From positions 1,240,001 to 1,304,000 of the forward strand of contig JAYWIR010000045.1 of NCBI GenBank assembly GCA_036172245.1: 64,000 nucleotides of DNA, given 5' to 3'. The translations under genes were made by a program, and so were the position numbers. Positions 3,001-64,000 of this stretch are shown here, piece by piece (position 1 is the first letter of the stretch; every line of letters begins with the position of its first letter). Origin of the DNA: Raillietiella orientalis (Eukaryota). A model generated the notes under the pieces. It was not told the origin of the DNA. It ran no database searches and saw only the letters and a program-made list of their open reading frames with translations.

Positions 3001-6000
3001 AGTGTCTCACCTGTAATGCATGAAAATTTCTATCACTGATACGTAGAGAATGATTGCCATCAGCAGGTGGCATTTCACAGTCACTTTTACCATCTCTTGT
3101 GTCAATATTTTTTGTATCTTTCAATGTATTTGTCTGATAAGCACAGGTATTTGATAATTCGACCTGCTCATTATACAAGAGAGCTTGTGCCTTTTCTAAA
3201 GATTTGGCTGAGATCTCAATAGATTTTCCAGATCCTGTTCTAAATACACACAGGTTCTGGTTTTCAGGGGGAAGTTCTATTTCACTTTGATTATGAACAT
3301 CGATAGTTGTTTCGGGCTGAAAATTTTTTGCATTTTTGAAAGATTCTTGAGCAGCTTGCACTGACTGCTGATTACAAAAGGGTGGTTCTCTGATCTTTTC
3401 TGTATTTAACAATATAGAATTTTCTCTACAGTTCATGTTTATTGGAAGCAAATGTTTAAATGGATCCATTTGAAATGAATCACTTGATTCCTCGCTGAAT
3501 TTTTCAGCCTTTGAAATGATTTTTGAATGCTGTGCCATTTCAATCTGCATAGCATCTGAATCAACACTTTGTTCTCCTAAAATAAATTCGTTTTTAGATT
3601 TTCCAATTTATTCTAAATATTCTTAATTTATTAATTTAAGGTGCTATTTGTTTTTGCTTTGAGTTAAATTCACTTTCATTCTCTCCTACTTTGCATACCT
3701 GATTTTTCAAATCCCTCTTGGAGAATAGACTGGGCAATTTCTAAAGCTTCAGGGGAAACAACGATAGGCTTTCCAGTTGCTGTACAGAAGCCTTTCCAAC
3801 TTGCACTTGACATAGGATTTGCATTCCCTTCATTAATAAAATCTTTATCATCATTCTTTTTAACTGATGACTGCGAATGTCCGCTGAACACTGTAGATTC
3901 ATGTTGTGCTGATTTCCACACTGGGCTGGAATCGCTTTCGCTTTCTGTACAAATCCTTTTGTTCGAATTTGGCTCATGAAGAATCGACTTTTCGTCGTCT
4001 AAAATAGTTTTGGCTTTTTTTAAGGATTCGTTGGATACATAAACTGGGTTTCCAGTAGCTGTGGTGAATGCAAATGAACTTCTGTCTTTTGGAAAAGCTG
4101 ACCAATTTTGTTTATGTTCCGTTCTGGGCGAAAGGTTCTGAACTGTTTGTAAAGGCTCATTTAAAACAGTAGGGCAAACAGTAGAGTTTCGTTCGGGCGA
4201 TGTTAACTGGAAATCTGCTTTACATTTTTTCTTATCAGGAGATTCTGAAGCACAGAGTTCGTCTCGGAAAAGAAAATGAGCATTTTGTAATGCTTTATGT
4301 GAAATCTGTATAGGTTTTCCATTCCCTGTAGAAAACTCTGAGAATATTACATTGTTTGGTTTATCATCAAAAACATCTTGGTTTTTAGAATAAAACCTAT
4401 CTGTAAGTACTCTAGAACTTTGTCCTGAAGCAGACTGTGTTGCTGTCATTTGTGGTTTTGTGTTCTCTGAAAGAACTAGGCTACAAACTGAGTATCCAGC
4501 TTTTAAATAGAGATCGCTATCCTTATTTTCTACCAAATATGCAAAGTTTGAACTCTTGGGGTAAACATCACTCATTTTTAGGGCATTACTTTCTGAGGTT
4601 TGTGTTTCTTCATTGTCCCTGTAATTCGAGAATCTTTGATTTCGATCCACAGTTTCTTCCTTTCTGAGCACTTTATCCAAAAATTTTCGTTTTCTATTTA
4701 TGTTACCAGTTACTGATGTAGAATCAGCAGAATTGTCTGGTTGAGAAAGAGCATTTTCTGAACTACAGTTGTTTCTCTGTTGCATTTCTTTACAGATGGT
4801 ATCACTGGATTCTTGCAACGTTCTTGAAAATTCATTCTGTTTTCCCATGTTGAAATGAATCTTTTTGTACCATGGAGATTTATTGTAAGTAACGTTAATG
4901 TTAATATTCTGATCTATATGCCTGGATGTGCTATGGAACCAACTAGTTTGCAAACTGATTTGATTCAGTGAGTCCACAGAATCACATGAACAAAGAACTT
5001 GCTTTGTAAAAGACGTTGACTTCAAAATATCGCCTCTGGAAGTGTTGCAAATGTCTACATTCTTTGCTCTCTGTAGAGGCAAATAATGATTGTACATGCA
5101 CGTTTGTTTTTTTTGTAGAAATGCAAGGGAAGTCTTCTGCATTCTCTTTATGTGATCTTGTTCAAGTAAACCACTTGATGTTAGAACAGGATTATTTCCT
5201 AATATTAAAATTTGAAACTCATTATTATGCATAACTGATAAACCAATTATATTTATAAAAAAGTGTATCATAGTTACCAATATAATTGATCGATGAAGAT
5301 GATGTACAAATATCATAATGGTGTTCAGATACAGCACTTACTTCTGAAACAACTTGTTCACTGTAAGTACTGCTTTTCATAGGGTAATCTGAGTTACTGC
5401 TTTCTAGCACTGTGATCAAAGGAAGTGAAATATTCTTACCCTGAATGCAAGTTTGAGAAGTAAACATATTTGGCAGTTCTTTTTTGGCAGAAGAATCAGA
5501 GTCATTTTCAGGAATGCAGGATGAACAGGAGACGTTATCTTTTGTCGGAAAAAAATCAATAGCATCAATGTGTCCATGCATCAATTTTTCTTGACTGATA
5601 ATCTCATCACAAATTTCTGATTCATTGTTTGTATCCATCACAAGATCAGCATTATGAAAACTAGACTGTTGGATGGATTCCATTGAACTAACTAAAAGAA
5701 ATAAATTTCTCCTTTCAGCAATGGGATTTGAACTGTACAAATTGTCTCATATATCTATCATATATCATGTCTCATATGTCCCATATAATATGTCTCATAT
5801 ATACTCTAGACCAAAAACTCAACAAATAAATTATCTTGAATCTGCAGTCAAAAGAAGTACCTCCCAATATTTCTGCATCTGTAGGATATATAAACTGTCT
5901 TCGCTGTGGTGTCAAAATCTGCATTTCATCACATACAGCTTGCATTTCAGTAATCTCAGTATCAATTTTCTACAAAACAAATCTTCAGTCATGATACTGT

Positions 6001-9845: not shown

Positions 9846-10871
9846 AGGGTTCTGGTGGATCCTATATTCCTAGTGGATGATGGAAATCCTTTTGGGTTCT
9901 TTTCCGTCTTCGCTGCTTTTCCTTTCAGCTTTTTTTTGGTTCTCTGAGTACCTCAAGAACCGTCGCGCGCCTGGAGGCCCACGCAGCTCTTTGATGCTGT
10001 TCCACGCCACCCGAGGGTGTTCATAATTCTTCGAGGTAGGAGGCATACCCTACCTTGAAGAACCCTATGAATACAGGAAGGACTCCGAAGAAGGGAGTCC
10101 GTTCGTCTCACTCCTGGGGAGAGATTCCCGAAAGGAACCTCCCCCCTCGTTGTCTCCGAAGGGAACCTCCTTTCTCATTCTTTGCGGAGAGACCCCCGAA
10201 GGGGTCCACTTCATTTTTTCTCCCCCTAAGGGAACCTGGAAAAGATCCGCTGTGAGGAATTTCTTCTCCAGAAGGAACCCGCAAGGGAACCGCTTCTGGT
10301 TTCCTCCTCCTTCTCTGACGAGAACCCCGAAGGGACGCTTCCAAAATTCAGAAGAGCGCTGCTTACCGAAGGGAACGTCCCGCTTCTCTGCACTCTCTGG
10401 AGAGGTGGCTACACATCTGCTCCATCAGTACGACTCAAGGTCCCCCCCCCGGAATGGGGGGTCCGCTCATACAACATCTGGAGAGGTGGTACACACCTAC
10501 TCCATCTGAACGAACCGGAGGGGTCTCCCACACTGGCGGGTCTGCTCTCCTTTGCGCAACCGGCAGGAAGGAACTCTCCACTCCTTGATTCCTGAAGGTC
10601 GACTCCCAATCCTGGCCACTCATCGGGGGCATCCGGTTTGAACCGCTACCTGCACCGCAACCGAGTGAATGTAGTTCAACTCGTGTCATCTTGAGGGAGG
10701 AACTCGAACCCGCGACGCACACGGACTCTGCATCGATTCTTTCCGACTTCTCGAACCCGCGACGCCTAATGTCACGCGCGGAGACCGTGACCACGTGGCC
10801 TCCGACGAGGGCCAAATAATGAATCGCGTCCTAATAAGAAATCTGTCATTTAGAGAGGGTTCTGGTGGATC
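9846..10871 (-). mobile_element. Candidate ~1 kb SINE-like insertion flanked by 16-bp direct repeats
   Basis: AGGGTTCTGGTGGATC occurs at 9846-9861 and 10856-10871. There is a minus-strand tRNA-like head near 10750-10810 (GGCCACGTGGTCAC ... GTCGCGGGTTCGAG), a duplicated B-box segment at 10703-10718, internal CCGAAGGGAAC-like repeats and a ~30-bp direct repeat at 10397 and 10478. Confidence 0.4.
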
Positions 10872-16519: not shown

Positions 16520-16822
16520 CTAGCGGTGCCCCACCGGTGCGCGCCCGCGCTCGCGTGTGCGCGCGCCAGGCGGCCGCCCGCCGAACGCGCCGCAGCAACC
16601 GGCGCGCGGAGCCTCCCGGCGGCAGCCAATCGCGAGCGAGCGGGCGAGGCGATCGCGGCGCGCTTCTCCGCTCTCTCCGTTCGCCCTGCGCAGTGATCGC
16701 GCGCGCACGTCGGTCCGCAGGAGGGGAAGGAGCGCGGCGGCATCGTCAGCATCGCCAGCAGCAGCAGCGGCAGCAACAGCGGCACCACCAAAAACAGCAC
16801 CGTCGCCAGCACAGCAGCAGAG
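16520..16822 (+). promoter_or_regulatory. Putative CpG-rich promoter/5' UTR of eyg-A with CCAAT box and CAG-rich leader
   Basis: Dense CGCG runs, AGCCAAT at 16624-16630 and a CAG/CAC triplet-rich stretch at 16741-16820 directly before ATG 16823. Confidence 0.45.
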
Positions 16823-19800
16823 ATGTCGCAGGTGCCGGCGCCCTCGGACCCGTTCCATCCAAGGGTTTTCCTCAGCGGATCGGAAGGTGCGTTTGGGCAA
16901 AATTTCCCCTCCCTCCCCGTCTTCACACAGGCATCCTCCCGCTCCTCTTCCCCCTTTTTTTCTCTCTCTCCCACCCCCCTCTTCCGTACGGAGCGCGCAG
17001 CAGTGCCTGGACCTGCCATTGTCCACCCTCTCTCCTGAAAGTGGGGAGGCGCCTTCCCGGGATGAAAGGGGTATGAGGGCAGAGAAAAGAAAGGGGATCG
17101 CGAAAAAGGGGGAGGGGATAGAGAAAAAAAAGCTCTGTGGGGGGCCGCGAAAAACGGAAAGCCGGTGTGTCTCACGGAACTTCTCCGCTCTCCAGGAGCT
17201 CATGCCCCCCCACCTATTTTCGCGGCGGCCACCTCCCCCAGGCAAGCCGTGCTGGACCTCTACCGGTGCGGCGTCCTCCAACAGCCCTACGACCTCACCG
17301 TGCAGCAGATGCTGACTCAGAAGAACGCCGTCAAGTTCCTGGGTGAGTACCGTGGGCGGGGTCAACGGGGAGGGAGGAGGAGAAAATGGGGAAGGGTCGA
17401 TCCCCGCGCTCCGGGCCCTTCAGGCACCAAGAACGAATTTTCCCTCGGGAGGGTCTGTGCTGGACCGCGGCTTACGGGAAGGAATGAGGTCAGAAGGGAC
17501 AGGGCCGTTCCGGGAGCCGCCCTGCGGCAGCCCGAAAGGGGAGGCGCAGGGCAGGAGTGCGCGTACAACCTTCCTCCCCCCTCCTTCGTCTCCCAGCAGC
17601 TCCAGGAACAGCGAGCAGGCTGCGGTATCTCTCCTCGTTTCTCGTTCCCGTCTTCCCGGATTCCCCCAGCGCCCAGACGGGAATACGGCGCAGGTTCCCG
17701 ACGCGGCGCGCAGACCGGGTCTCCAGGAAAAACTATCGGAACCACTCCCGCGGGGGGTCTGGGAGCGAATTCCGGACGCCACACCCGGGTGCCGAAGGTG
17801 CGTTGTCGTCGGTCGCGAACTGTCTCCAGGGAAACTGGCAGCTTGCTTTCTCCCGGGGGAACGCCCGCGCTCCCGAGGTCTGCCTCGTCGCGAGCGCTCC
17901 AGGAAGGGGGAGAGGAATGCCACTCCGACTCCCTCTCCAGTTCGACGCCACCTCCGGGATCCGAAGAGGGGATCCCGTCGGAGTGGTTTCCCGTAGTGAC
18001 CGCTCTGTGGTCCGGGGATCGCACGCTGGTATCCGGAGGGAACACAAGACAGGACCTTGCTGCTGTGGATCCCCTCCTGGGGGTTTCCGGGAATGGTTTC
18101 CGCTGGAGAGGAGGGGTAGCGTCCTGCAGGTGGGATCCGCCGCTGCCGTCGCGGTCAGCTCTGCTTGAGCTCCACCGGTTTGGGGTGAAGCGGGGAAGAG
18201 GGGGAAAGGGGAGGAAGAGGGAGGGAGGTAAAAGCAGCCGCTCCGTTTCCTTCGCCCTCTTCCTCAACGACCCTATTCCAGTTAAGCACCGCCCGCCCTC
18301 TCGCCTTTGGTCTAGGGCGAACTGCGATCTCCCCCCCCATTCCCCCCCCCCTTCCTCTATGTAGTGCCCCCTTCTCCGTGGACACACTTTCCGACCGATG
18401 CGTCTGCTCCCTCTTTTCTCACCCGCAGGCCGTTCCTCAAGCATCCATCGCCCTCCGCCCTAAGGCACCCCGTCGCGCTTCCTGGTTCCGGGCTTCTCTC
18501 GAACTGTTTTACTCCTGGGAAGAAGGAATCCCCAAGGATTTTCCCTGGAAGAGTCCCTCGGAGGGCGCCTCTTTCGCTCGCCGCTCCCTGGGAAGGAGAA
18601 GGCGAATTTCGGTCCGTTTGGTGGCGCTCGGCCACCGGGCGACCTCCGCACCTAGGGAAGGCGCCGCCCAGGTGGGAGCGCGGTAGTTCCCCGGTCCTCT
18701 CCCCTCCTCCTCGACTCTCTTCCATGACTCCTCGTTCCCTTCCCGGATGCGGAAAGAAGCGTCTCCGGCGAAGATCCTGACAGCCAGGGTGGCGTCTTCC
18801 GCTCTGCGGCCTACCCTGCCGAGTCTGCTGCGGTGCCAGCGCGACCACGGGGGTTCGGGCTGGGCGATGACTCGCATAGGTCCCCAGGAGGTCCCCACGT
18901 GTCAGCTCTCTACAGGCTTTTCGCGAGAGAAACGCGGAGACTCGTGTGGGGGAAGCGAGGAAGGGGGGCGCAGTGATGGAGGCGAAAGGGGCCCTCAGCA
19001 AAAGGCAGCAGCACATCCTCCTTTCATCTCCGCCACAGTGCAAAGCCCGGAAATGAGAGAAGAGTGTCTTCCGCTCCGAGTTCTTCTGGAGGGATGGTCT
19101 TGCTGTGTTTGCGCATGTGAGGGGGGGGGGGTAGGGGATTGCTAGTACCATTGTGGGCAGCTCCTGCATCCATGGGTGGAGGGCGACTTGACCCCTTCTC
19201 CCGGCTTTCTCGAGGGAGGATCGGCAAACAGCGGGGATCTGCGTAGAGAGAAAGAAAGGGAGTGAGGGGTTCCTCTCCTTTCCTTTTGTTGCTCTTCTGG
19301 AAGTCCTCGAGCACCCACCCGTTTGAGAGAGAGAACTTCCCCGAGCTCTCCTTGCTGAGAGAGGAGGAGGAAACAGGGAGTCGCCGATACCTCGTCGAAC
19401 GAATGGAGACGTAGGGTGCGAATTCCTTTCTAGATAGGGCCTTCCTCTCGCTCCACGAAAGTACCTGCCTCCACCTCCCGATTCACACACAGCTGAACCT
19501 TTACGTTCGCCTGCTTCGCGGGTTCCCGAGGGATAGGGTAGGGCTTCTCGCTGCGCTTAGTCGCGGAGGCGCATCCGGGAAAAGGGGAGAGGGGGAGCGC
19601 TCCGGCTTCCCGTTCGGATCCGTCGGAGCTTAGAAGAGTCCCCCCTGGATTAAGGAAGCGGGAAGAGAACGCTTTCCTGAAGCTCCAGGATCTCTTTAGG
19701 AGCTTGCCAGGCGGAGAGGAATGCCGGGACTGAGGGGCAAGCTTTTGGAGGCCGAGGCTCTCGGTGGTCGGCGGATGGCGCACCGCCGGTCCTAATTGCG

Positions 19801-22800: not shown

Positions 22801-25800
22801 TCGGAAGGGCGAAGGCCCCCCTGCAGCACGGAGTTGAGGTCGATAGCTGCCGCTGTCGCCCGCGAACAGCCTCCGCTCCCACGGCGACGGGACGCTAGGT
22901 TCTCTAGACAGGGATCTTGCAGCAAACGGCGCTGCTGTCTCCCAGGTAGCAAGCACCCCACTTAAACTCCGACACCGGTACGCGTGAGATGCAGCTGGCC
23001 AAAGCACCAGAGAACGGAGCCACGTGCGCCATTTTGGATCCTCTTCACCAAGATCCAGTTGCGTTTATCCTAGTGAACCTTAGTGGTCTCTAAAAAATGG
23101 CCTATTCCCAGTAGGGACTGCTTCCTTTTTTTTGCTAGAAGCCTCCCCAGGTAAGTCCTCATCGACCTCCTCCCTCAACCTGAAAATGACGACGCAGGAG
23201 AGAAGCAGCGACTGGCCGGAGTGTTGCCAGCGACCACAAGCATCCTCCCGACCTCCCTCTTTCTGCTGACCTCTACCTCAGGTTTGATCCCTCCCTTAAG
23301 ACCGAGGGCCACTGCCCGGGGGAAGTTCTTGGAATTCCTTCCGCCCCGGGAAAGCCTCCGGTAATAATCTGGAGGCTTCGCTCCCACCTTCGCGCTCTCG
23401 AGGAGAACTGCTCCAGATCTCGCAGCCAGCCACCGAGGGGTCTGCCGGAACTCGCGGGTGTCCAGGAACGCACCACCCATCCGGTTCCCTTTCGAACGGG
23501 GAAGCCGGGGAAGAGAAAGGCTCCAGTGCATGCTCACGGGCGCACACCGGAAGCATCATCCCGAGGACGCACGTAGACATGCATGCAAATTTGCGGGGAG
23601 TGTTCCGGCACCCGCTCTATGGGGAGATGCCTGCGTGCAAGTCGGATGTCTTCCATGACGTTTTCCCAAGCACATGAGTGGGTGGATGCGCGCGCGCGCA
23701 CTGCGTTGGGTAATCACGGATGCGGGTCCATCGAAAAAGATTTTCGAATCGTAAACGTTCTGAAACTTCCCCAAAACAAAAGAGATAAATAAATGGAAAA
23801 GCAAACAAACAGACGAATACATAGACGAATAAATAAATGAAGGCAGGAGAGTCATCCGTCGTGGATAAATGCAGCCATCTCTTCTTGCCTCTCCTTTTGA
23901 ACGGAGGCTGGCGAATGCGTCCGCACATCCCGTGGCATGGCTGTGCAGGAGGTGAACCTCTCTCACCTATCCATTGTTTGTTTTCACGAAGACCACTCGC
24001 CATGGAAAACTGCGAATTGATTGTACTTGGATACGCGTCACTGATGGCAGCAAGAAGAATGGAGTGATTTGTTACGCTTCGAACGTGAATCAGTTATGCA
24101 CGGCGAAGAGGACGCGTAGAGTGAGACATCTCACTAAAAGGAGTAGGTCAACGGCTCAGAGGAGTTCTTAAGAGGCAGTAAAAATCACAAACAGAGAGGT
24201 CTCTCCTGCATCCGTTCCGTGCTTATCCGAGCCGAGCCGCGAGGCGGAGGTCGGCATAGCGACGCGCTGAACGCTCACTCACCGTTTATTCTCCTCCTCG
24301 CGTCCCATTTTTTTTTTTTTTTTTTTTCCCGGCCTTTCGGGTCCGACATTCGTCTGGCATTTGCGCGCGAATGTTAGCGAACGGTTCCTCCCGTGGGATT
24401 TCAGGGCTACTCGGGTGCGGCGGCTGTCTGACTGTGGCTTCCCCGCGCCACCCATTTCCTCTCCCTCTGGATTCGCGTCCAACCCCACTCGGAACGCTCG
24501 TGCGGAGCTCGTGGGGATTCCCTCCCCCTTTCCTCTGGAACCAGATCCGAGTGAATGCGGACCAATCAGATCGAAGTGGGGAGAGCAGGGGCAGATGCTC
24601 AAGGCATCCCAAGAACCCAACGCCGCTATTCCACAGCGGAGCCTCGCTGTTTTCAGCAACAGCCTGCCGCATCATTTTGACGCACATAACCTGTACAGAG
24701 CGCACGGTGTACACGTATGGCAGCCATTGCTTTTTCGAGGCTGCTCGGGTGGGTTATCGGGTAAGTTGACGCGTACACATGCATCGCATGCACGCCGCGA
24801 CACGTGCAGGTAAGTCCGTAGGTGCAGGAAAATTCTCTCTCCCAAGTAACAGATGCATGGATGCCATACATAAACATACGTCTATTTGTACACCCATGTA
24901 AGGGATAAGCGATATGTAAGTCTTACTCGTTACGTACGATAAACTGAAGGGCCCTGGGCCGAGACTAAATCACCACCAAATTCCCCCTCCTCCCTCCCCA
25001 ATTCCCCTCTCCTTCCCCCTGAGGGGTTCTGCCATCCTGTCAGCAGCGACTTCTCCGCTCCTGGAGGCTCCCCCTGTTTCGAGGTCCCATCTCGTTAGAA
25101 GTCTCGAGGGAAGACGTGCTAAGACGAGAGCGCGCGAGCAAGGATTTCTCCCTGCGTCGGGATGCGCACACGCGCGCGCGCCCAGAGGCGGCGACGAATC
25201 GTTGACTCGCGCTCACCACTCTTGTTTTGCAGAGAACCTTCGTCCTCAAGCCACTGTGGGAGGAAGCAAGCCGAAGGTGGCTACGCCCAGTGTTGTTGCC
25301 AAGATCGAGCAGTACAAGAGAGAGAATCCGACCATCTTTGCTTGGGAGATACGAGAGCGCCTCATTTCGGAAGGTAAGAGAGAAACATCCATTCCATCCG
25401 CGAACTTTCCGCCGCTCGCCGTCTGGAACGCCAGTCACTGCTGCATATCCATGTGAAAGGTCCCCTCATTCGATTCTTGTGCGAAGGCAAGAACCGACGA
25501 GGAGGTCGCTAAGTGATCGCTGAGGGCCAAGCACGTCTCCGGAAAGATGAATGCGGGGAATCACCTGCCGTTAGCGGATTTTGCTTTCCGAGCTCGTGTG
25601 CCTCCACTGCGCACCAATCCCGGCAGGGCAGCTCACCTCCCCGTTTCCCGAGGGACGGATGCGATACCGTCCCTCGACTTTCCTCTGCATCCGCAGAAAC
25701 CCACACAGTTATCCTTGCACAGTAATCCACTGCCGTCCTTGAAGCTCGATGGGTGAAGCAACAGATTCCGGGCGGCTGCTAGGGGAAACCGCGTCCATCT

Positions 25801-28800
25801 CTGGCAAGCGGAAACGCGTAGGTCGTATGTGGTGCACAGAATCCAACACTCGGTGACCTAGGATGGGGGCAAAGCGAGAAGCATATGAAAGTAGATGAAA
25901 CAGATCTGGTTGAGTGTTTATGCCGTTTCTCGTAACTCCAAGCAGAATCTAATCTTCTGCAAATAGGGTGGCGCAGTAATGACGCCGATGATAGATGATC
26001 GCAACACAGCGAGAATGATGGATGCTATTCTTATTGGTGGGAAAATTAATGGAGGAATGAGTTGATGGTTTGGTGAAAATGATGGTCAAATTACCAAGAG
26101 TCAGTGATCTTTCTTAAAGGCAAGTATTTTAGCGCTATCACTGAAGTCACCTAATATCGATGAGGACCGACCGATGGCAGTCGCATTGGCTCCTGAGAAT
26201 GCCTGCTGCTGTAACGGATCCGTGTAGGTGTCACCGTGGATACCATCCGAAACATAAATTGATTTCCCTTGAACCCGGTGATTAGAACTGGCTTCTCCCT
26301 AGAGAACCTGGTGAAAGGGCACGAGGCGAAGAGGATGAAGCTTACCCAAGGTCTCTCTGATCAACCGCTTTGAAGTGTGTGTTATCCAGCGTACTTGCCA
26401 GTTGAGTACCAGTCACTTACCCAGTTCACACGATGCGAGTGAGATCACTGCAGCAAATCAACGGGTGGCCCTGGGCCGAACCGTTCCTCTGTCGGAAAAC
26501 GACTCTTCCTGCTTTCTGTCAGCCTCGCCGGGGAGGAGTTGATCTCTACCTCCGGGGTAACTCGCCGATGCAGATCCCCTGCTCCTGTGAGGCTGGGAAC
26601 CCGAAACGCGCAAAATACGGGGCTGCTTTCCAGCGCGGACTCCAATCGCGCGGGGTTAACTGGGGGGGGGGGGCTCTCGGGGCAGCCCTTTGAGATCTCT
26701 TTAGGATGAGATTCTCCAGCCGCGCTTTCAACAATGCATGCTGTTGAGGAGCGTGGAGCAAAAACATGAGATACCACAACAAAATGCGTGAGAAATAACA
26801 ACACGAGTAAGGCTGGTTTCCCGGTGCCAGCGGTCTCTTAAGGTCGTGGTCCGTAGCTCGGAAGGCGTGCATCACGAAAACCCCCCAACTCGATAGCCAT
26901 AAGCATTGATTGTATTGCAGGAATCTGCTCAGGCAGCGCAGCTCCCAGCGTCAGCAGCATAAACAGAATCCTGCGCAACAGGGCGGCGGAGAGGGCTGCC
27001 ACTGAATTCGCCAAAGTGGCAGGATACACGTTCTACCACCCGTTCGCGCTGTCTTGGTCGACCCCACCTCCGTTCTGGAGCAACCTGGCCGTCCCGTTCT
27101 ATGGAGGCAACGCCGTGCTGCCGATGCACAACCGAGACAGCAAGAATGTGGTCTCGATGCAAGCGGAACTTCGGCAGGACAGGATGCACCCTGAAGGTTG
27201 CTCTCCGGGCTTCATCTTGCCGGGCGCACTGATCCATGGCTCATTCTTTCAGGGTTAGCAGAGCAGGCAGATAGGCACCAAGACACATCCAAAAGAAATC
27301 TAAATACGGATGTCGAGAAGGAGAAGAGAACGACAGAGAAAAATTCACCGGTAGGTCACGGTGCTTACTGCACAGTAAGTATGGATTGACCGACAGGACC
27401 TCCATGCTTCCAGAACGCTAAAAAAAAAAAAAAAAAAAAAGAAAGAAAGAAAGAAAAAGAGAACCAGTAAACTTGAGCGCGTGGGGGAACCGTCTTAAAG
27501 AACCGCACGTGTGACCTCAGGCAGTACCACAAGTGACCGGTTCCAACGCAGTTCTCGTACTTAACAATCACAAGGAAGTCGTTTTGCACATTCCATCTGA
27601 CTTCCGTTGCGCAGCTGAACTTCCGTTTAAGATTTCGCGCCTGCGTGGAGCCGAGTGATTTTGTTTCCGTTTCCCACGAGCGTCTTCCCAGAGTGCCATT
27701 GTCGAGTTCGGGGACTCCAGTATTTTCCGGGGTTTGCTGAGTGACCAACCGGTCTTCTTCAATAGAGCTGTGGAAGATGGGACGGACCCGTTCGCTCCTC
27801 CGCTAACAATCACCACCAAGAAGGATTCCCTTTTCTAGAAAAAATGCGCGTCGCCTAAGGAAAGCATCTTGAGTGACGCACCGAATGACCGAACGGATTC
27901 CAGTTCTGGAGAGGCGAAATCTCCTTCCTGATCCCTCTCTGGTTCTTTCCACACCTGGTGAGGTGGCGCGCGTTCACCAGGACTCTCCGGTTCGCCAAAA
28001 GGCGCCGGATGAATCTGATCCGTTCCCAGCGTTTCGGCAAGGCTGCGAGGGTTGCCAGGTGGTGGGAGACCTCAGGCCCGCGGAATCCGTTTTTCCCTTC
28101 CTGTGCGATGAGGGAATTGGGCCGGAGGAGAGGAGGGGTGGGGCGACTGCAAAGCCTTCCCTGTTTCGACGGCGAGCATGCTCCCTGCGTGGGAACCATT
28201 CGGAGCGTTTCAGGATGAGAGGTTCCGTTTGCTTGATGATTTCTGCGGAGGAGTAATGATGCAACCTGTACGGAGGTGGGAGTGGGGGCGTGGGAGAAGC
28301 GAGGTTTCCCTTGAGAGGGGTCACGCAGAACGGAGGAGGGAGGAAAGGGGGATGGGAAGAAACACCAGAACTCCCAGTTCGTTCGGTATTCGCCAGTTTC
28401 CAGGAGAGGGCGCGCGCACCTAGGTCGATTGCTCGACTCGCCAGGCCGCGGGAGAGCCCTGCCGTGGCAACCAAACGCTCCTCTCTTTGAGAGGACGGGC
28501 GAAATGTGGGGAAGAACGAAAAAGGAAATTTCGACGACCGAGAGGTCGCGGAAGGAAAACAAACCGATTGACGGTTGCCATCCTGGATGCACCAAACGGA
28601 GAGCCGTGCGCGACCGTCTTTCAGACCTGCAAAAGCCAGCAGCCCCTGCTGCCCTGCTGGAGGGATTCCTTTCCGAATCTCGGGTTCCCGCGTTCCGAGG
28701 AAAAGGGCTGCCAGGAAATCCGTCGATCGATCGGGCAAGCTGTGGAAAGAGATCGGGAGGAACTCGTCTCTAGCCGATAGGTCTTTCGGGGACTGGAAAA

Positions 28801-31083
28801 GAAAGGAGAAAAAAAAAAAAAGAGGCCCGGGATGAGAGAGATCTCCAGAGAAAACGACTCGCAATAGACAACTGGTGGATAAGTGGGCAGAGCTCTCCCC
28901 GCAGAAGGATTTCGCACGAGGTTCTTCATGCAAGAGTGCCGTTGATTTTTACACAATGAGAGATATTTGAATGCTCAACATTTCACGGCCGAGAGGAATT
29001 GAAAGAACATCTGAACCGACGCTTTGTGATTAGAGTTACGTCATCCATGCAAAAGGCTCACGTGCGTAGCGTCACCTCTACATTGTTTCTACGACGGCGA
29101 TGCTCGTATCGTTTCTATAGGGATTCTGGGAGAGGGAGAGAGAGAGAGCGAGAAAGAAGAGGAAGGAAAAAAAAAAAAAAAAAAGGACAAAAAAAAAAAA
29201 AAAAAGGTGATTATTTGCAGAGTTCAAGGATTTTCCTGTGAACAAATCGCTCGCGCAATGAGAACACTCAGCAGCAGACTTGGGGGAAGAATATCTACCT
29301 CCCCAAATCGGAGTTGCAGCGACAGCGTGCGTTTACGGAACAGCATCACCGGAGATGTTTGCGCACCGGCAGTCAGCAGGCCTCTTCGGGAGCGAGCCGC
29401 CGGCACGTTCTCTCCCGTCAACTCCTCCCGGCGAGCATGGCGCTTCCGAAAAATTTTCCCCTCCAAAAACTGCGGAAACTCCGCCGCCTGCTCCTGCGTG
29501 GGGAAGGGAGGGGTGGGGGAGGTACCGTGCTGCGTACTACCGAATGCGAGAGCGCGCGTGCGCGAGCGTGCGCATTGCGCGGTTTCGAATAAGGGATCGG
29601 GGCCGGATAGCACGCGACACGCATGGAACGGTTGCGAGGATGAGGAGAGACCCCATCTCTTTTCCATTCAGGAGAGACCTTCTCGACTACCCATGCCGAT
29701 TCCGATTTCGACCTCTCTGCGGATGCTCTCCTTTCTCGCGTGCAGTCAACGGCGACTAACCTCTTGCACGCCTCCTCGTCTGAGCCGAAGGAAAACAAAA
29801 AGAGATCTGATCGATTGGCAACTTCCGACTTGAAGCTGCTGCTGCTGCACACGCAACGCGAAGCTGGCTCGGCTGAGCTCACTGGAGCAGAAGACGTGGG
29901 GGGGAGGGGGAGGGTGTTGTTGTCTGAGAGCGTCTTCTTAGAGCCTAGGCAACAGGCAGTGCCGTGCGACTGGACCCCACGGATCCTTCACGCGCGTGCG
30001 CAGCGCCTGCACCTCGCAGTTGCGCGGGTTTCGAACGGCGCAGCTGAAGAGCAACAGGGGAAGCTCAAAGTCAAGATACGGGGGGCAGTCGGTTCTCAGA
30101 ACCGGGGTGGGAAGGACTTGCACTTCTTTCCCCGTCCTTCGGAAGAGTGGCAAACGACCTGCGAAAGAGTGGCCCTGTACCTCTCAGGATTTCAGAGACC
30201 ACGCTCTCCCCTTCCCCACCCTTCCTTCCCCCAGAGTCACAGGACCCTTTTCGGAGGATAGCCAGCTCCAACCCCGCAGTTTCTTTTTGCATCCAAATGA
30301 TTCAGCGAGTCATGGTACGAACTTTGCTGTTATCTTTTTCTTGCTTTTCTCTGCTGGACATTCCCGTTTCTGGACGCGCGGTCCTCAAAATTGTTGCGAC
30401 CCACTGGCGCGCCGATGCCAGAGCGCGAGAAACCGCCTATCCTGGTGTCCCCGCCCTCCTTGAAACGAACGAAGCCTTGATCGACGAGGAGGGTCGCCCC
30501 GTATTACGACGTCTTCCTCTTTGCAAAGAGGGCGGCGACAAAACACTCTCTTCCTTCCGTTTCAACATCGCCAGCCGCTCTCCGCGAAATTGCAAGCTGG
30601 GGGATGCTGAAGACGTAACAAAGGGATAAGGAAGGGAGGTGAAAAGCTGCTACAGATGACGTGTTCTGTTTCCCACGAGGGTCCTGGAGTGGAAACCGGG
30701 CACAATTGGGAGGATACCAACTGATGCAGCTCGTCAATAATTAGATAGTTTGGAACTCTTTTCTTTTTCTTTCCACCATCTCTGGGTTCTCATGCCCTCT
30801 TTCGTCTGGACGACTCCGTGTGAAAACTTTGAAAAATGAATGTGGGTCCCCTCCTCCTCCGGGAATTTTCTTGCAAAAACTTTCGATTGTTCTGTTTTTT
30901 CAGGTCGATCTTGTGGGAACCTCGTCGAAAGGGAGTCAGGATCTGCATAGCCCAACCGTGTGGAGACCGTACGTAATCAGTAATGACGTGAAAAGTGCCG
31001 ACAGGAAGAACCACAGCTTACGCTATCATCCTTGGCTGGTCGGAGCGAACAAGGATGGGGTCCCTTTCAAGAAGAAGATGTAA
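16823..31083 (+). CDS. eyg: Eyegone-class Pax transcription factor, copy A (divergent, apparently without homeodomain); ~301-309 aa
   Basis: Exons 16823-16886, 17196-17342, 25233-25373, 26921-27196, 27253-27350 (or 27374) and 30904-31083 join in frame through GT-AG introns (906 nt including stop for the shorter form). Protein: MSQVPAP...[114 protein letters not shown]...VWRPY...RYHPW...KKKM*. The [13 protein letters not shown] tail is characteristic of eyg/toe. Exons 1, 5 and 6 are inferred from phase only. Confidence 0.8.
17196..17342 (+). CDS. eyg: eyg-A exon 2 (degenerate PAI remnant)
   Basis: ctctccag acceptor and G|gtgagt donor. VLDLYRCG...YDL...[12 protein letters not shown] aligns with [29 protein letters not shown] of copy B. 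Confidence 0.8.
25233..25373 (+). CDS. eyg: eyg-A exon 3 (paired-domain linker and RED helices)
   Basis: ttttgcag acceptor and G|gtaaga donor; encodes [46 protein letters not shown]. Confidence 0.95.
26921..27196 (+). CDS. eyg: eyg-A exon 4 (end of RED subdomain and eyg-type tail)
   Basis: tattgcag acceptor; encodes [46 protein letters not shown]. The 3' donor (G|gttgct) is weak. Confidence 0.9.
30904..31083 (+). CDS. Predicted terminal exon of eyg-A (VWRPY and RYHPW motifs)
   Basis: Strong ttctgtttttttcag-type acceptor ending at 30903. Phase 0 matches the donors at 27351 and 27375. Encodes [59 protein letters not shown]. Confidence 0.6.
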   Translation, partial: VDLVGTSSKGSQDLHSPTVWRPYVISNDVKSADRKNHSLRYHPWLVGANKDGVPFKKKM

Positions 31084-31733
31084 CCTCTTGCCACGCTTTT
31101 TCTCCTTGGACAGTCTCTAGTCTCTGCCGACGGCTACCGATTTCCTTTCCGGCAGCGACGAGCTCGCAAGCCCCTGACTTCACAAAGCGGTCGCTCTTGT
31201 TCGACCACTTACTCGAAAAACTGGAAGCACTCCCTTTCTCTCTACTTACGCATGGGTAGTCCGCCTGTTCCCCCTATTGCGGCAGCAGACTTTCCAGCCA
31301 GCTCACGGTCCAATAAAAAGTACTGGATCCGAAAAAACCATCCCGTTTGTTCGTTGCAGTCACTGACGAAACGCGCGTCGCCACCATTTTATCTCTCCCG
31401 GCGATCATCTGCTGCGGAGCGAGTGTCTCTTGGAAGACTCCGTTTCGTATCCGCTGCGCACGTGCACGGCCGTGCACGCCACCTCTCTCCCCAATGGGAG
31501 TGTGGGCGAGTGCTGGGGGAGCGTGAGTTCCCCTTCACGTGTCGAAACGACCTGTGTGTGACAAGGAGAGGGGGGGGGGGGGAACGAAGGGGTCAAGTCG
31601 AATGGTTCGAAGAGAAAATAAAACAGAAGTGATGCTGGGGATGGATTCATCTGGCGCCCCCCTCCTTCCCTCTCTCTCTGACTGCCACTTTCCCTTCTCC
31701 AAGGAGGACCTTTCGTTGCTTCGGACAAGAAGA

Positions 31734-61087: not shown

Positions 61088-64000
61088 ATGTTAATTCTGG
61101 AGCAAGCGCCCTCCAAGATGGAAGTGCCAGGCATTCCCGGTCTCCCGTTCCTGTCCGCTGCCGCCGCTGCGTCCCTGCCTTCGAACCTGGAAACCATGGA
61201 AGCAAGTGAGTAGGGGGCGCTGTCGCACCCCTCCTCCTCTTCCCCTCCCCCCCATCCTCCTGGACGCGGCCCCGCACGCGCATGAGAAGGGTGGCCTTCC
61301 CGAACAGGAGTCAAGAGGGAATCCCTGCAGAGGAAGGTGGGACCTCCCCATCCTCCTCCTCCTCCTCCTCCCCTCCTCCAGGCAGGGACCCACGCTGCAA
61401 GAGGGCGGTAACCGCCACCCCTCCCCTCTTATTCTACAGGAGCGCCATCTTTTTCCGCCGGTTTTCCCCTCGCGCTCCAGTGCAGAGGCGTGGCCATTCA
61501 TCCCTTCTCTTCCCGTATTCTTCCTCTTCCCTGTGAACGATGAGAGTGGCGTCTTCCACCCCCTCCCTTCCCCTCCAACCTTGCAGGAGCAGTGGCCCTG
61601 CGCATGTCCACTCTTTCCTGCCCTTCTTCTTCCATTCCATCTCCCACCTCCTTCCCTCCCTCCCTCCTTACTCCTTCTCCTCTCCATCCTCCCGGTCGTG
61701 ACCTCCATCACGCCCTGCGGGAGGGAAGGAGAAGGAGAGGATGAGGCCTCCTCCGGGACTCCTGTCCCGGCACTCCCGGCTGCTTTCCAGGGATGCGTCT
61801 CCTTCTGGAAGCATCCCGTCGCCTTCCCGCGGATGACCACGCAAAGTGCCCGCACCGCCTCTTGGAACTGGAAGGGACTCTGGGAAAGGCAGGAGCGAGA
61901 ATCCTGGGCGCCCAGACTTCTCCTCCGACCCCGCCGAAGAGGCGGAGGGAGGGCCGTTTTCCCTTTCGAGACCGCTCCTCTCCTTCCCTTGCTCTTTCTT
62001 CTGTATCCATGGGATGATTCCTCTCTCCCCCGCCGCTGCCAGGAAGGTCAATCGGAAGTACACAAGAGAGGGGCTGCAACCGCAGCTGCTGAGTGCGGAG
62101 AAGTGCGGAGAAGGGGAGCGGGAAGGATTCCCGCTCCCCTTCTCCCTCGGCGGGAACATCTCCCGGTAGCCGCAGGGAAAGCGTCCCCAAGGCAGCGAGG
62201 CACCTCTGAAGTGGTGGCATTCCTACCTTCCTCTCCCTTCCAGCAGAGAGAAGGGGAAAAAAGTCCCGGAGGGAAATCTCGAGGGAGGGGAGAAATCCTG
62301 TCCCTGCCAGCGGAGGAGCGGAGAAAGCCGGGATGCCGGAGTTCATCCGTCACCGCCTGCTGTTCCCCTCATCTTCGGTGGGATTGCGAGTCGGGATCGA
62401 AGGATGGGGGGAAAGGGGAGAAGACTTCTCCTCCACCTCCCATCGCAGGGCCTCCGGGAACCCAGGTGCTCTCAGCCCATTCAATCCGTGAGGACCTCCT
62501 GCACTTCCCGGGAGGAATGCGGGAAAATCGGGAAGATCCGCGGAGTCCTCCCTCGACCGGATCGCTTCCCGGTCTGGTTCGAAGGCGCGTTTTGGAAGGG
62601 TGAGCGGTGAAGACTCGCAGCGGATTTAATGAAGGGCGGAGGCCGCGCAGGAGGATGCCACCACACAGGGACCCTCCGCAGGCCGAAGCAGGACCCGTGG
62701 GGGCCGGTAAGGGGGGAGGAGAAGTCACCCTGGAGGTGATGCAGAGATTGGGACGCCAGCGAGCGGGAGAGTCCGGTCTTCCTTGAGCCAGCTCCTTTCT
62801 CCTCCCACGAATATCCTCCCCTACCCTTGGCGCTCGTTCCCCTTTTCTCCCCCAAGTCCCCGCGATCATGACCCACGAAGGCCGCCTGGCGCCCTCCAGC
62901 GTTGCGCGTCGCCACCACCAGGAAGGGAGGAGGGACGTCAGCCCCCCGCGGCAGCCGGGCAGATCAGCCTGAGGTGCTAATCTGAGGAGATTGGGGAGCA
63001 TCCGGGAAGTACCGCCCGATCCCGATTTCCGGGTCGGGAGCCCGCTCCCCTCCCTTCCCTCCTCCCTTGGGAACCGGAGGGCCCTGTCCTTGAGCTTTCC
63101 GAGCGTGGTTCACCGCTCCCTCGTTTCCCCTGCGACCGCCCCTAGGGACTCTTCCACTTGCTCCCGGTCTCTCCCTCATCATCCTTTCCCTGGAAGGATG
63201 CCTGAGGTCCCGAAAGATGGGGAAGGAGGATGGGGGAAGCCTTCAGGCGGAAAGCGCCCGGGTCCCCTCTGGGCTCCCATTCGGACGGCTGCGCTTCCCG
63301 GCGGCATCGCCAGGCAACAGCGAGCGCTTGCTTCTCCCGTGCCTCTCCCTCCCTCTCTAACCCTCCCCATCCAGATAGGTTGATCTCTCCCGCCTTGCGC
63401 GGACTGTATGCCGGGACGCCCTTCAGCAGGATCCCCGCCCCTTCCCCTCTCCTGGACCTCGGCAGCTACGGGCTGCGGAGCTACGACCTGGCCCAGCACG
63501 TCCTTCGGCAGCAAGGAAGCGCCAGCAAGCTCTTCGGTATGGCACGAGTTCCTCTCTCCTCACTAAGCGAGTGGGTCCTTTCCCTCCGCCTTTCCGGGAG
63601 CAGGTTCCCTGCGCCCCCCAGGAATAGTTGGAGGGAGCAAGCCCAAGGTGGCCACCCCCACTGTGGTATCGAAAATCGAGCAGTACAAGCGGGAGAACCC
63701 GACCATCTTCGCCTGGGAGATCCGGGAGAAGCTGATCTCCGAGAGTAGGGAGCTGCAGATCCCCCTGTTTCCACACCTTCCCCCTCCACCTCGCTCCTCT
63801 AGGTGTGTGCACCAACAACACTGCACCCAGCGTCAGCAGTATCAATCGCATCCTGAGGAACAGGGCCGCCGAGAGGGCAGCCGCGGAGTTCGCCCGGGCC
63901 ACCGGTTACGGGTGGTACAACCCGTACCCCCTGGATTGGCCCACAAACAACCTCTGGCCCCCCCTGACGTCATTGCCGCCCAACCACTCGCTCCATGGAT
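61088..64000 (+). CDS. eyg: Eyegone-class Pax transcription factor, copy B (canonical-looking; 3' part beyond the window)
   Basis: Exons 61088-61205, 63375-63536, 63604-63744 and 63803->64000 are joined by phase-1 GT-AG introns. Protein: [13 protein letters not shown]...[118 protein letters not shown]. The first exon and start codon are inferred. Confidence 0.9.

Follow-up and report, generated by a model that had tools for sequence, protein, structure and literature searches.

A probable eyegone-type Pax gene without a homeodomain and with a terminal VWRPY/RYHPWL exon in Raillietiella orientalis

Can an eyegone (eyg)-type Pax gene do without its homeodomain and end instead in an exon carrying motifs of the WRPW/WRPY co-repressor class? 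This question is raised by a 64-kb stretch of Raillietiella orientalis DNA (contig JAYWIR010000045.1, positions 1,240,001 to 1,304,000 of the forward strand), the whole of which we call the window. It contains two eyg-like copies, A and B, both on the plus strand. A preliminary description of this DNA had proposed that copy A encodes a remodelled Pax protein, with the RED subdomain as its only DNA-binding part and a WRPY-type motif in its last exon. Our analysis of the sequence suggests that copy A is probably a functional Pax gene of the eyegone type which has no homeodomain, extends over at least 17.2-31.3 kb of the plus strand, and ends in an exon encoding VWRPY and RYHPWL.

Copy A comprises four conserved coding blocks, which follow each other in order on a single strand. 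The open reading frame (ORF) around RED exon 1 (25233..25373, plus strand; acceptor ttgttttgcag/AG, donor GAAG/gtaaga) matched the PAX profile PF00292 with an expect value (E) of 2e-19. The match covered profile positions 62-116 of 125, which indicates that the paired domain is intact in its RED subdomain and truncated in its PAI. The conserved recognition-helix sequence of RED is found in the following exon, from 26921 onward, and agrees with that of relatives; the intact RED subdomain claimed at the outset was thus borne out. This exon (RED exon 2 plus linker, 26921..27196, plus strand) is 47-72% identical to the matching region of eyg-type proteins. A search with its translation scored 516 proteins at E <= 0.001 among 905 candidates, and the best matches were crustacean, chelicerate, and insect eyg-type proteins auto-named "Pax-6-like" (top match, 72% identity over 45% of the query).

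The N-terminal part of the protein was located with a profile hidden Markov model (HMM) of the 70 residues preceding GGSKP, built from 89 relatives. The model matched ORF 17066-18361 at residues 38-96 (17177-17353; E 1.5e-5) and thereby ranked copy A second, behind copy B's own exon (E 4.2e-13). The corresponding exon of copy A lies at 17196..17342 (plus strand; acceptor ctctccag/GA and donor CTGG/gtgagt, both phase 1), and its phases are identical to those of the homologous exon of copy B. The conserved block (..Y-D-L-A-Q..L..Q....K-L-L-G) is present in copy A and joins the linker directly.

A homeobox, in contrast to these blocks, is absent from the 64-kb window at a detectable level, as confirmed by four checks that agree with each other. 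The signature WFxNxR did not occur in any frame of the whole window, and looser homeodomain motifs gave only scattered, short, chance-like matches without homeodomain context. In tblastn searches with three homeobox-bearing eyg proteins (P0003 and P0010, which have a complete homeodomain, and P0004, which lacks helix 3), 202 weak alignments overlapping the homeodomain were obtained at E <= 100; the best of them (E = 0.016) fell on a low-complexity run of R, H, and Q at 16735-16887. The homeodomain profile PF00046, a search proposed in the preliminary description, matched none of the 291 plus-strand stop-to-stop ORFs of at least 40 amino acids between 27.2 and 63.3 kb at E <= 0.1, with the RED exon of copy A serving as the positive control for Pfam detection. 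No homeodomain was found on the minus strand among its longest ORFs, the only ones scanned there. The motif scans, tblastn, and the profile therefore uphold the earlier statement that no homeobox lies between 27.2 kb and copy B on the plus strand. The prd-class homeodomain that is a criterion of the Pax6-like/Eyegone family was not found for copy A within the window, to which this statement is confined, exons beyond 64 kb being outside its scope. Likewise, the five proposed exons of copy A (276 whole codons, first exon not included) contained no octapeptide/eh1 match to the regular expression [FYH]S[IV].[NDSGE][ILM][LIM].

In place of a homeobox, copy A would end in the exon at 30904..31083 (plus strand), which consists of 59 codons and a TAA stop (31081-31083). 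Its acceptor, ttctgttttttcag/G with the AG at 30902-30903, is strong and is the strongest polypyrimidine acceptor of its ORF. As initially reported, a single open exon holds both VWRPY (30958..30972, plus strand; V codon at 30958, the WRPY-class tetrapeptide at 30961-30972) and RYHPW (31021-31035), and the coordinates first given for the two motifs were correct. With the leucine that follows it, the second motif reads RYHPWL (31021..31038, plus strand; R codon at 31021, YHPW at 31024-31035), the same as the C-terminal motif of homeodomain-less eyg-like proteins of decapods and krill. Before the stop, 37 residues remain behind VWRPY and 15 behind RYHPW. When the window is translated in all six frames (127,996 codons), the pattern [WFY][RKH]P[WY] is found only three times, and two of the three matches fall within these 59 codons; the two motifs are not due to chance. 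The third match, WKPW at 61188-61199 (plus strand), lies in a 502-codon open frame (61095-62600) that has no Pfam match and is located about 2 kb upstream of the first detected exon of copy B.

The relationship of this exon to the tails of other eyg-like proteins was examined in two ways. A 20-column HMM of the motif region, built from 25 relatives with the window left out, placed ORF 30745-31080 at the top of 1999 six-frame ORFs (E 0.0064; runner-up, 0.29). In addition, the 59-residue exon was aligned locally to individual targets and compared with 1000 shuffles. The observed score was reached by 1/1000 shuffles for the alternative tail of Palaemon (described below), 4/1000 for the homeodomain-less C terminus of Eriocheir, 7/1000 and 9/1000 for the alternative tails of Agrilus and Periplaneta, and 29/1000 for the homeodomain-less C terminus of Hyalella; for the canonical tail of Folsomia, used as a canonical-frame control, it was reached by 776/1000. 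A further resemblance of the exon to SSKGSLDLSDTSP of the Macrobrachium and Palaemon alternative tails occurs in reverse order relative to the motif and was set aside. Downstream of the exon, AATAAA is found at 31312..31317 (plus strand), 229 nucleotides (nt) past the stop, with a second copy at 31617. Between 10 and 64 kb, the plus strand has only five AATAAA, in addition to an overlapping one at 23832, and two of them lie within 540 nt past the stop; neither AATAAA nor ATTAAA occurs on this strand between 27258 and 31312.

The same layout is found in other species. Five predicted malacostracan proteins of 386-392 amino acids, from Eriocheir, Penaeus japonicus, Homarus, Procambarus, and the krill Meganyctiphanes, have PF00292 as their sole Pfam domain. 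All five end ...VPGWRYPRYHPWLHNLTR, and a sixth of the same kind came from the representative search. The amphipod Hyalella azteca has a comparable protein (XP_018015569.1, auto-named "mucin-5AC isoform X2"), which ends ...SRFHPWIGNQVSPR. Automatic names in this set are Pax-2-like, Pax-9-like, Pax-1-like, or mucin-5AC. In Eriocheir and Procambarus, the homeodomain-less gene and the canonical eyg probably lie on one contig, as judged from the equal lengths of their longest contigs. Copy A and the malacostracan set share an eyg-type RED subdomain, the lack of a homeodomain, and [FY]HPW near the C terminus, which stands six to eight residues from the end in the malacostracan proteins, whereas copy A has its 15 residues after RYHPW. 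RYHPWL of copy A is identical to the decapod and krill motif, and decapods and krill also carry a W-R-[YP]-[PY] element just upstream. Because the tails of the relatives align at [FY]HPW, while the counterpart of VWRPY is only loose (GWRYP) or missing, the alignments point to [FY]HPW (RYHPWL in copy A) as the conserved element. VWRPY had been put forward as the co-repressor motif; this part of the preliminary description needs changing, since distant relatives keep [FY]HPW instead.

A closely related tail also appears to be encoded by canonical eyg genes. Many proteins predicted as eyg "isoform X2/X3" follow the homeodomain to ...ARVQ and then continue with TGQVEAAP..., and their tail carries R-[FY]-[HR]-P-[WY]. 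Such motif-bearing predicted isoforms occur in decapods, beetles, a cockroach, mosquitoes, brachyceran flies, and the copepod Tigriopus; the brachyceran forms have [FY]HPY, and Tigriopus has both FRPW and FHPY. We sorted 230 RED-containing proteins by regular expression for homeodomain and motif. A full homeodomain was present in 103/230, of which eight had FRPY directly behind it and none had the motif elsewhere. Another 52/230 started a homeodomain without reaching helix 3, and in 28 of these 52 the motif followed downstream. The remaining 75/230, many of them fragments, had no homeodomain; the seven with a C-terminal motif were the malacostracan paralogues. FRPY, which is WRPY-like, stands directly behind the homeodomain in the canonical frame (KWRRHHRM.[LI]FRPY) in P0163 from the copepod Lepeophtheirus and in the metagenome-derived P0041, P0048, P0079, P0121, P0164, P0165, and P0168. 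Where these copepod and metagenome full-homeodomain proteins have FRPY, decapods have LRPY.

The origin of the alternative tails was assessed with a codon-compatibility test, which asks whether an alternative and a canonical tail can share one DNA sequence (six pairs, five of them same-species; 200 shuffles). In 6/6 pairs, the alternative tail was what the canonical post-homeodomain exon encodes when it is read in the +2 frame from the point after VWFSN, 17 nt into the exon. All residues were co-encodable in the pairs from Eriocheir (180/180), Palaemon (179/179), Procambarus (183/183), Macrobrachium (182/182), and Periplaneta (108/108), as well as in the cross-genus Portunus/Scylla pair (179/179), while the longest run in the shuffles was 7. 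The same-species +2-frame pairs (P0010/P0020, P0015/P0012, P0021/P0023, P0007/P0004, and P0086/P0094) comprise 108-183 dual-coding codons. In the chelicerate-type predicted isoforms P0005 and P0027, ...ARVQ is followed by a TSEV/TGEV... tail without [FY]HP[WY]; because these tails switch at the same point without the motif, the alternative acceptor may have existed before the motif arose. The Tribolium eyg paper reports splice variants only at the 5' end.

The motif region of copy A resembles HRYHPWLAVGG of the Palaemon isoform. There are also differences: helix-3-less isoforms keep homeodomain residues 1-46, whereas nothing of the homeodomain remains in copy A, and they read their tail from the +2 frame of the last canonical exon, whereas the motif exon of copy A is free-standing. 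Taking both kinds of relatives together, we tentatively propose that the last exon of arthropod eyg is a deeply conserved dual-coding exon, in which splicing to an acceptor located 17 nt into the homeobox eliminates helix 3 and opens a +2 frame with R-[FY]-[HR]-P-[WY] in copepods, malacostracans, and insects. On at least two independent occasions, the repressor-type isoform may then have become permanent as a separate gene without a homeodomain, once in Malacostraca and once in the lineage of copy A, where the motif is doubled (VWRPY plus RYHPW). As for the initial proposal of a remodelled, RED-only Pax gene with a WRPY-type exon, the architecture was supported by the window and by relatives of the same layout. 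The idea of a one-off event was not, as copy A would belong to a wider pancrustacean class of homeodomain-less paralogues and helix-3-less isoforms. Judged from predicted proteins, such genes and splice forms occur in many crustaceans and insects and are apparently undescribed; in our full-text literature searches, we came across neither an eyg paralogue without a homeodomain, nor a frame-shifted eyg isoform, nor the [FY]HPW motif.

Whether copy A is an orthologue of the malacostracan genes or arose in parallel was addressed with a tree of 142 columns (N-terminal block, RED, and start of the linker) and 33 rows, namely A, B, and 31 proteins hand-picked from about 257 so that each group was represented. 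Both copies were placed with springtail, insect, myriapod, and chelicerate proteins in a starred clade (96/93), and all malacostracan rows lay outside it. By identity, the closest protein to both copies was that of the springtail Allacma (67% for A and 77% for B). When A was constrained to group with the seven homeodomain-less rows of Malacostraca, the log-likelihood fell by 15.1 units (p-AU 0.013 in the AU test), a value to be read with the long branch of A and with the fact that this group was defined once the tree was already known. A and B as sisters were not rejected (p 0.28). Because the tree and the AU test set A apart from the malacostracan rows, its homeodomain loss looks independent. 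We favour the view that copy A is not the malacostracan paralogue, and that a separate duplication and a separate loss of the homeodomain took place in its lineage. From these searches and the tree, the source organism looks like a pancrustacean outside Malacostraca that has no close relatives with annotation.

Several points weigh against this reading of copy A, some of which lie in the gene model itself. The reading frame of the exon from 26921 onward meets a TAG at 27256-27258, 3.6 kb short of the motif exon, and the donor at 27197 that would avoid it (gttgct) is weak. No in-frame ATG was found upstream of 17196-17342 within its ORF, and the exon with the start codon was not found. Because of this, at least one 5' exon of copy A must be missing from our model. 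Others concern the relatives. A search with the translation of the terminal exon produced two candidates sharing words, neither of which scored, and thus no close orthologue. VWRPY is not conserved as such in more distant relatives, with only GWRYP as a loose counterpart in decapods and krill and none in Hyalella. The alternative tail of Folsomia, which belongs to the nearest named group, showed no significant similarity, its score being reached by 856/1000 shuffles; an alignment of its LWPY...RLHP to VWRPY...RYHPW, made by eye, was rejected on this count. Profiles of the N- and C-terminal halves of the seven malacostracan members gave no specific match in copy A, their matches being to generic linker sequence or to copy B, and neither the malacostracan start MLIP...TAFSVPS nor the ISFSVES block was found in copy A with these profiles, which were run on the window. 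As to function, we know of no test of Groucho binding by YHPW or FHPW. The WRPY of Runx proteins has been reported to bind Groucho weakly (PMC4287436).

Because the frame of the exon stops at 27256, donors at 27350 (CCG/gtaggt, phase 0) and 27374 (ACA/gtaagt) are in phase with the acceptor at 30904 only after an additional 56-nt intron or a one-base miscall. The phase compatibility claimed for them in the preliminary description therefore stands under either of these assumptions, and fails in the uninterrupted frame. The proposed intron would occupy 27197..27252 (plus strand), with the donor CTGAAG/gttgct in phase 1, a CTGAT branch-like site about 20 nt ahead of tttcag, and the acceptor ctcattctttcag/GG at 27253; 27197 is the sole phase-1 GT donor upstream of this acceptor. 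Its size appears normal for this locus, since the introns of copy B measure 67 and 58 nt. Behind it, a putative middle exon of acidic and basic residues (27253..27350, plus strand, or up to the alternative donor after 27374) has an open frame, and its phases fit 30904. If one base was undercalled in the G run at 27252-27254, the same downstream reading would result, with no intron needed. Of the two horseshoe-crab proteins P0005 and P0013, one has a 12-residue insertion at the position matching 27196, which suggests an intron there and lends weak support to an intron of copy A at 27197. We thus regard the chain 26921-27196 / 27253-27350(74) / 30904-31083 as moderately probable. Of the other routes considered, a direct splice from 27196 to 30904 would enter another frame of the last exon and stop after about 15 codons, and the phase-0 donors at 27148 and 27151 are poor, falling below the listing threshold of the splice-site scan. 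The proposed last intron of copy A, 3.5 kb long, contains long A runs or GA-rich low-complexity sequence at 27421-27445, 28810-28822, and 29140-29206.

The stop and the weak donor could also be taken at face value. Copy A would then end at TAG 27256-27258 as a RED-only product without the motif exon, and 30904-31083 would either be left over from an old eyg tail or belong to another transcript. The uninterrupted frame does stop there, and the only donor offering an escape is poor. This interpretation is, however, at odds with several properties of the exon: it is the single significant match of the family motif HMM, carries two of the three WRPW-class tetrapeptides of the window, and has the strongest polypyrimidine acceptor of its ORF and AATAAA downstream, with no poly(A) signal of either type on the plus strand from 27258 to 31312. 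Moreover, a relic would hardly have kept an open frame and two intact motifs while the synonymous sites between A and B became saturated. We therefore consider an end at 27256 unlikely.

The insertion site of the horseshoe-crab proteins bears on a second alternative, in which one large eyg locus uses the exons of copy A as an alternative 5' module and the donor at 27196 (phase 1) is spliced past the paired exons of copy B to a homeobox beyond the window. This donor sits at the insertion site and would be in frame with a canonical pre-homeodomain exon. Copy B indeed continues past the end of the window: its N-terminal conserved exon (63375..63536, plus strand), matched by the N-terminal block HMM, and RED exon 1 (63604..63744, plus strand) are followed by RED exon 2 plus linker (63803..64000, plus strand). 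Because the latter runs past position 64000, a homeobox of copy B, if present, must lie outside. Such a transcript would nevertheless need an intron of more than 37 kb, across which a second full set of N-terminal and RED exons is passed over, and it would not account for the conserved motif exon or for the poly(A) signals behind it; in addition, Malacostraca have separate homeodomain-less genes with this tail. In our judgment, the single-locus explanation is improbable.

A third alternative is that copy A is a decaying duplicate and its motifs are leftovers. The missing start-codon exon and the in-frame stop at 27256 would fit a pseudogene, as would the long branch of copy A (1.57 changes per column, compared with 0.64 for copy B) and its divergent RED loop, ICSGSA instead of the VCTN[NS]T of relatives. 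This was weighed against the comparison with copy B, which lies 32 kb downstream on the same strand. Over 87 aligned codons, which contained no stops and no frameshifts, 67/87 residues were identical, with 72% identity of nucleotides. The proportions of nonsynonymous and synonymous differences (pN and pS) were 0.143 and 0.698, giving a pN/pS of about 0.2 and a dN/dS of about 0.08 with Jukes-Cantor correction, the synonymous sites being near saturation. Given the difference between pN and pS at this nucleotide identity, the A/B duplication is old, and purifying selection has been maintained on the RED region of copy A. The RED recognition-helix sequence still agrees with that of relatives. All five acceptors used in copy A consist of cag after a pyrimidine-rich tract, and four of the five donors begin with gta or gtg, the weak donor at 27197 being the exception. 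Decay of copy A is thus highly unlikely in our view, and we retain the reading of a functional homeodomain-less gene.

The locus has some other features. Long ORFs with BRCA2 (BRC) repeats lie at 3002-5746 on the minus strand, in an AT-rich segment, and match PF00634 with E 8.3e-16 (3679-5337) and 1.2e-6 (3002-3607). A protein search with the 553-amino acid BRCA2-like ORF scored no protein at E <= 0.001. The GC content shifts at about position 10000, from 0.31-0.38 over 1-10 kb to 0.52-0.66 over the other 54 kb, where both eyg copies reside.

Among known systems, copy A is most readily compared with Eyegone and Twin of eyegone (Drosophila eyg and toe, Tribolium eyg), with which it shares the N-terminal block, a truncated PAI, an intact RED, the lack of an octapeptide, and the arrangement as a same-strand gene pair. 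It differs from them in having no prd-class homeodomain in the window, and in the short WRPY/YHPW exon that replaces the long post-homeodomain tail. Its motifs, WRPY at 30961 and YHPW at 31024, fit the aromatic-[RKH]-P-[WY] class of the repressors Hairy/Hes (WRPW) and Runt/Runx (VWRPY), and the VWRPY pentapeptide is identical to the Runx motif. The Hairy and Runx motifs stand at the extreme C terminus, whereas those of copy A are internal, and the DNA-binding domain is unrelated. Internal motifs of the WRPW class also function in other proteins. Pax1/9-Poxm, Poxn, and Pax2/5/8 keep a full PAI plus RED paired domain. In contrast to these families, which lack a complete homeodomain, copy A would be of eyg descent, RED-only, and equipped with WRPW-class motifs instead. 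From Pax proteins of these families, the homeodomain has been described as lost wholly or in part in the course of evolution (PMC4901127); Pax2/5/8 have a half homeodomain.

The repressor function of this family provides the background for a possible mechanism. Eyg has been characterized as a dedicated repressor (PMC3942700), and proteins of the Pax6-like/Eyg type are listed with PRD and HOX domains and without an octapeptide (PMC12486386). In the same source, the Pax octapeptide/EH-1 appears to mediate repression via Groucho and is given for Poxn and Sv, with none for Poxm. The pore of the Groucho beta-propeller is the binding site of both WRPW and eh1 peptides (PMC4287436). In full-text searches, which did not cover Yao & Sun 2005, EMBO J, we found no printed statement of how Eyg recruits its co-repressor.

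By analogy, the tail of copy A could plausibly recruit Groucho. In the scenario that we propose, a canonical eyg gene was duplicated, with copy B as the sister, and an architecture to which arthropod eyg may already give rise by alternative splicing became fixed in the duplicate as a gene of its own. In that isoform, the acceptor 17 nt inside the last homeobox exon would drop helix 3, and the +2 frame would yield R-[FY]-[HR]-P-[WY]. The product of copy A would be composed of the eyg N-terminal block, the RED-only paired domain with its linker, a short charged segment, and the C-terminal exon with VWRPY and RYHPWL. Such a protein would bind RED-type sites with no contribution from a homeodomain and would recruit Groucho/TLE through [FY]HPW, and perhaps through WRPY as well. 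It would then act as a dedicated repressor and possibly as a competitor of canonical Eyg at shared RED sites.

A conserved WRPW-class motif would offer a directly testable route from Eyg to Groucho; in the canonical gene this motif is concealed in another frame, while homeodomain-less paralogues display it at their normal C terminus. The locus would separate RED-dependent from homeodomain-dependent functions of Eyg into neighbouring genes, as a natural experiment, and an alternative isoform may have been converted into a paralogue twice in Pancrustacea. If the dual-coding exon is real, the motif would provide the molecular connection, so far missing, from Eyg-type Pax proteins to Groucho-dependent repression, and this locus would represent a clean natural case of a gene duplicate replacing an alternative isoform.

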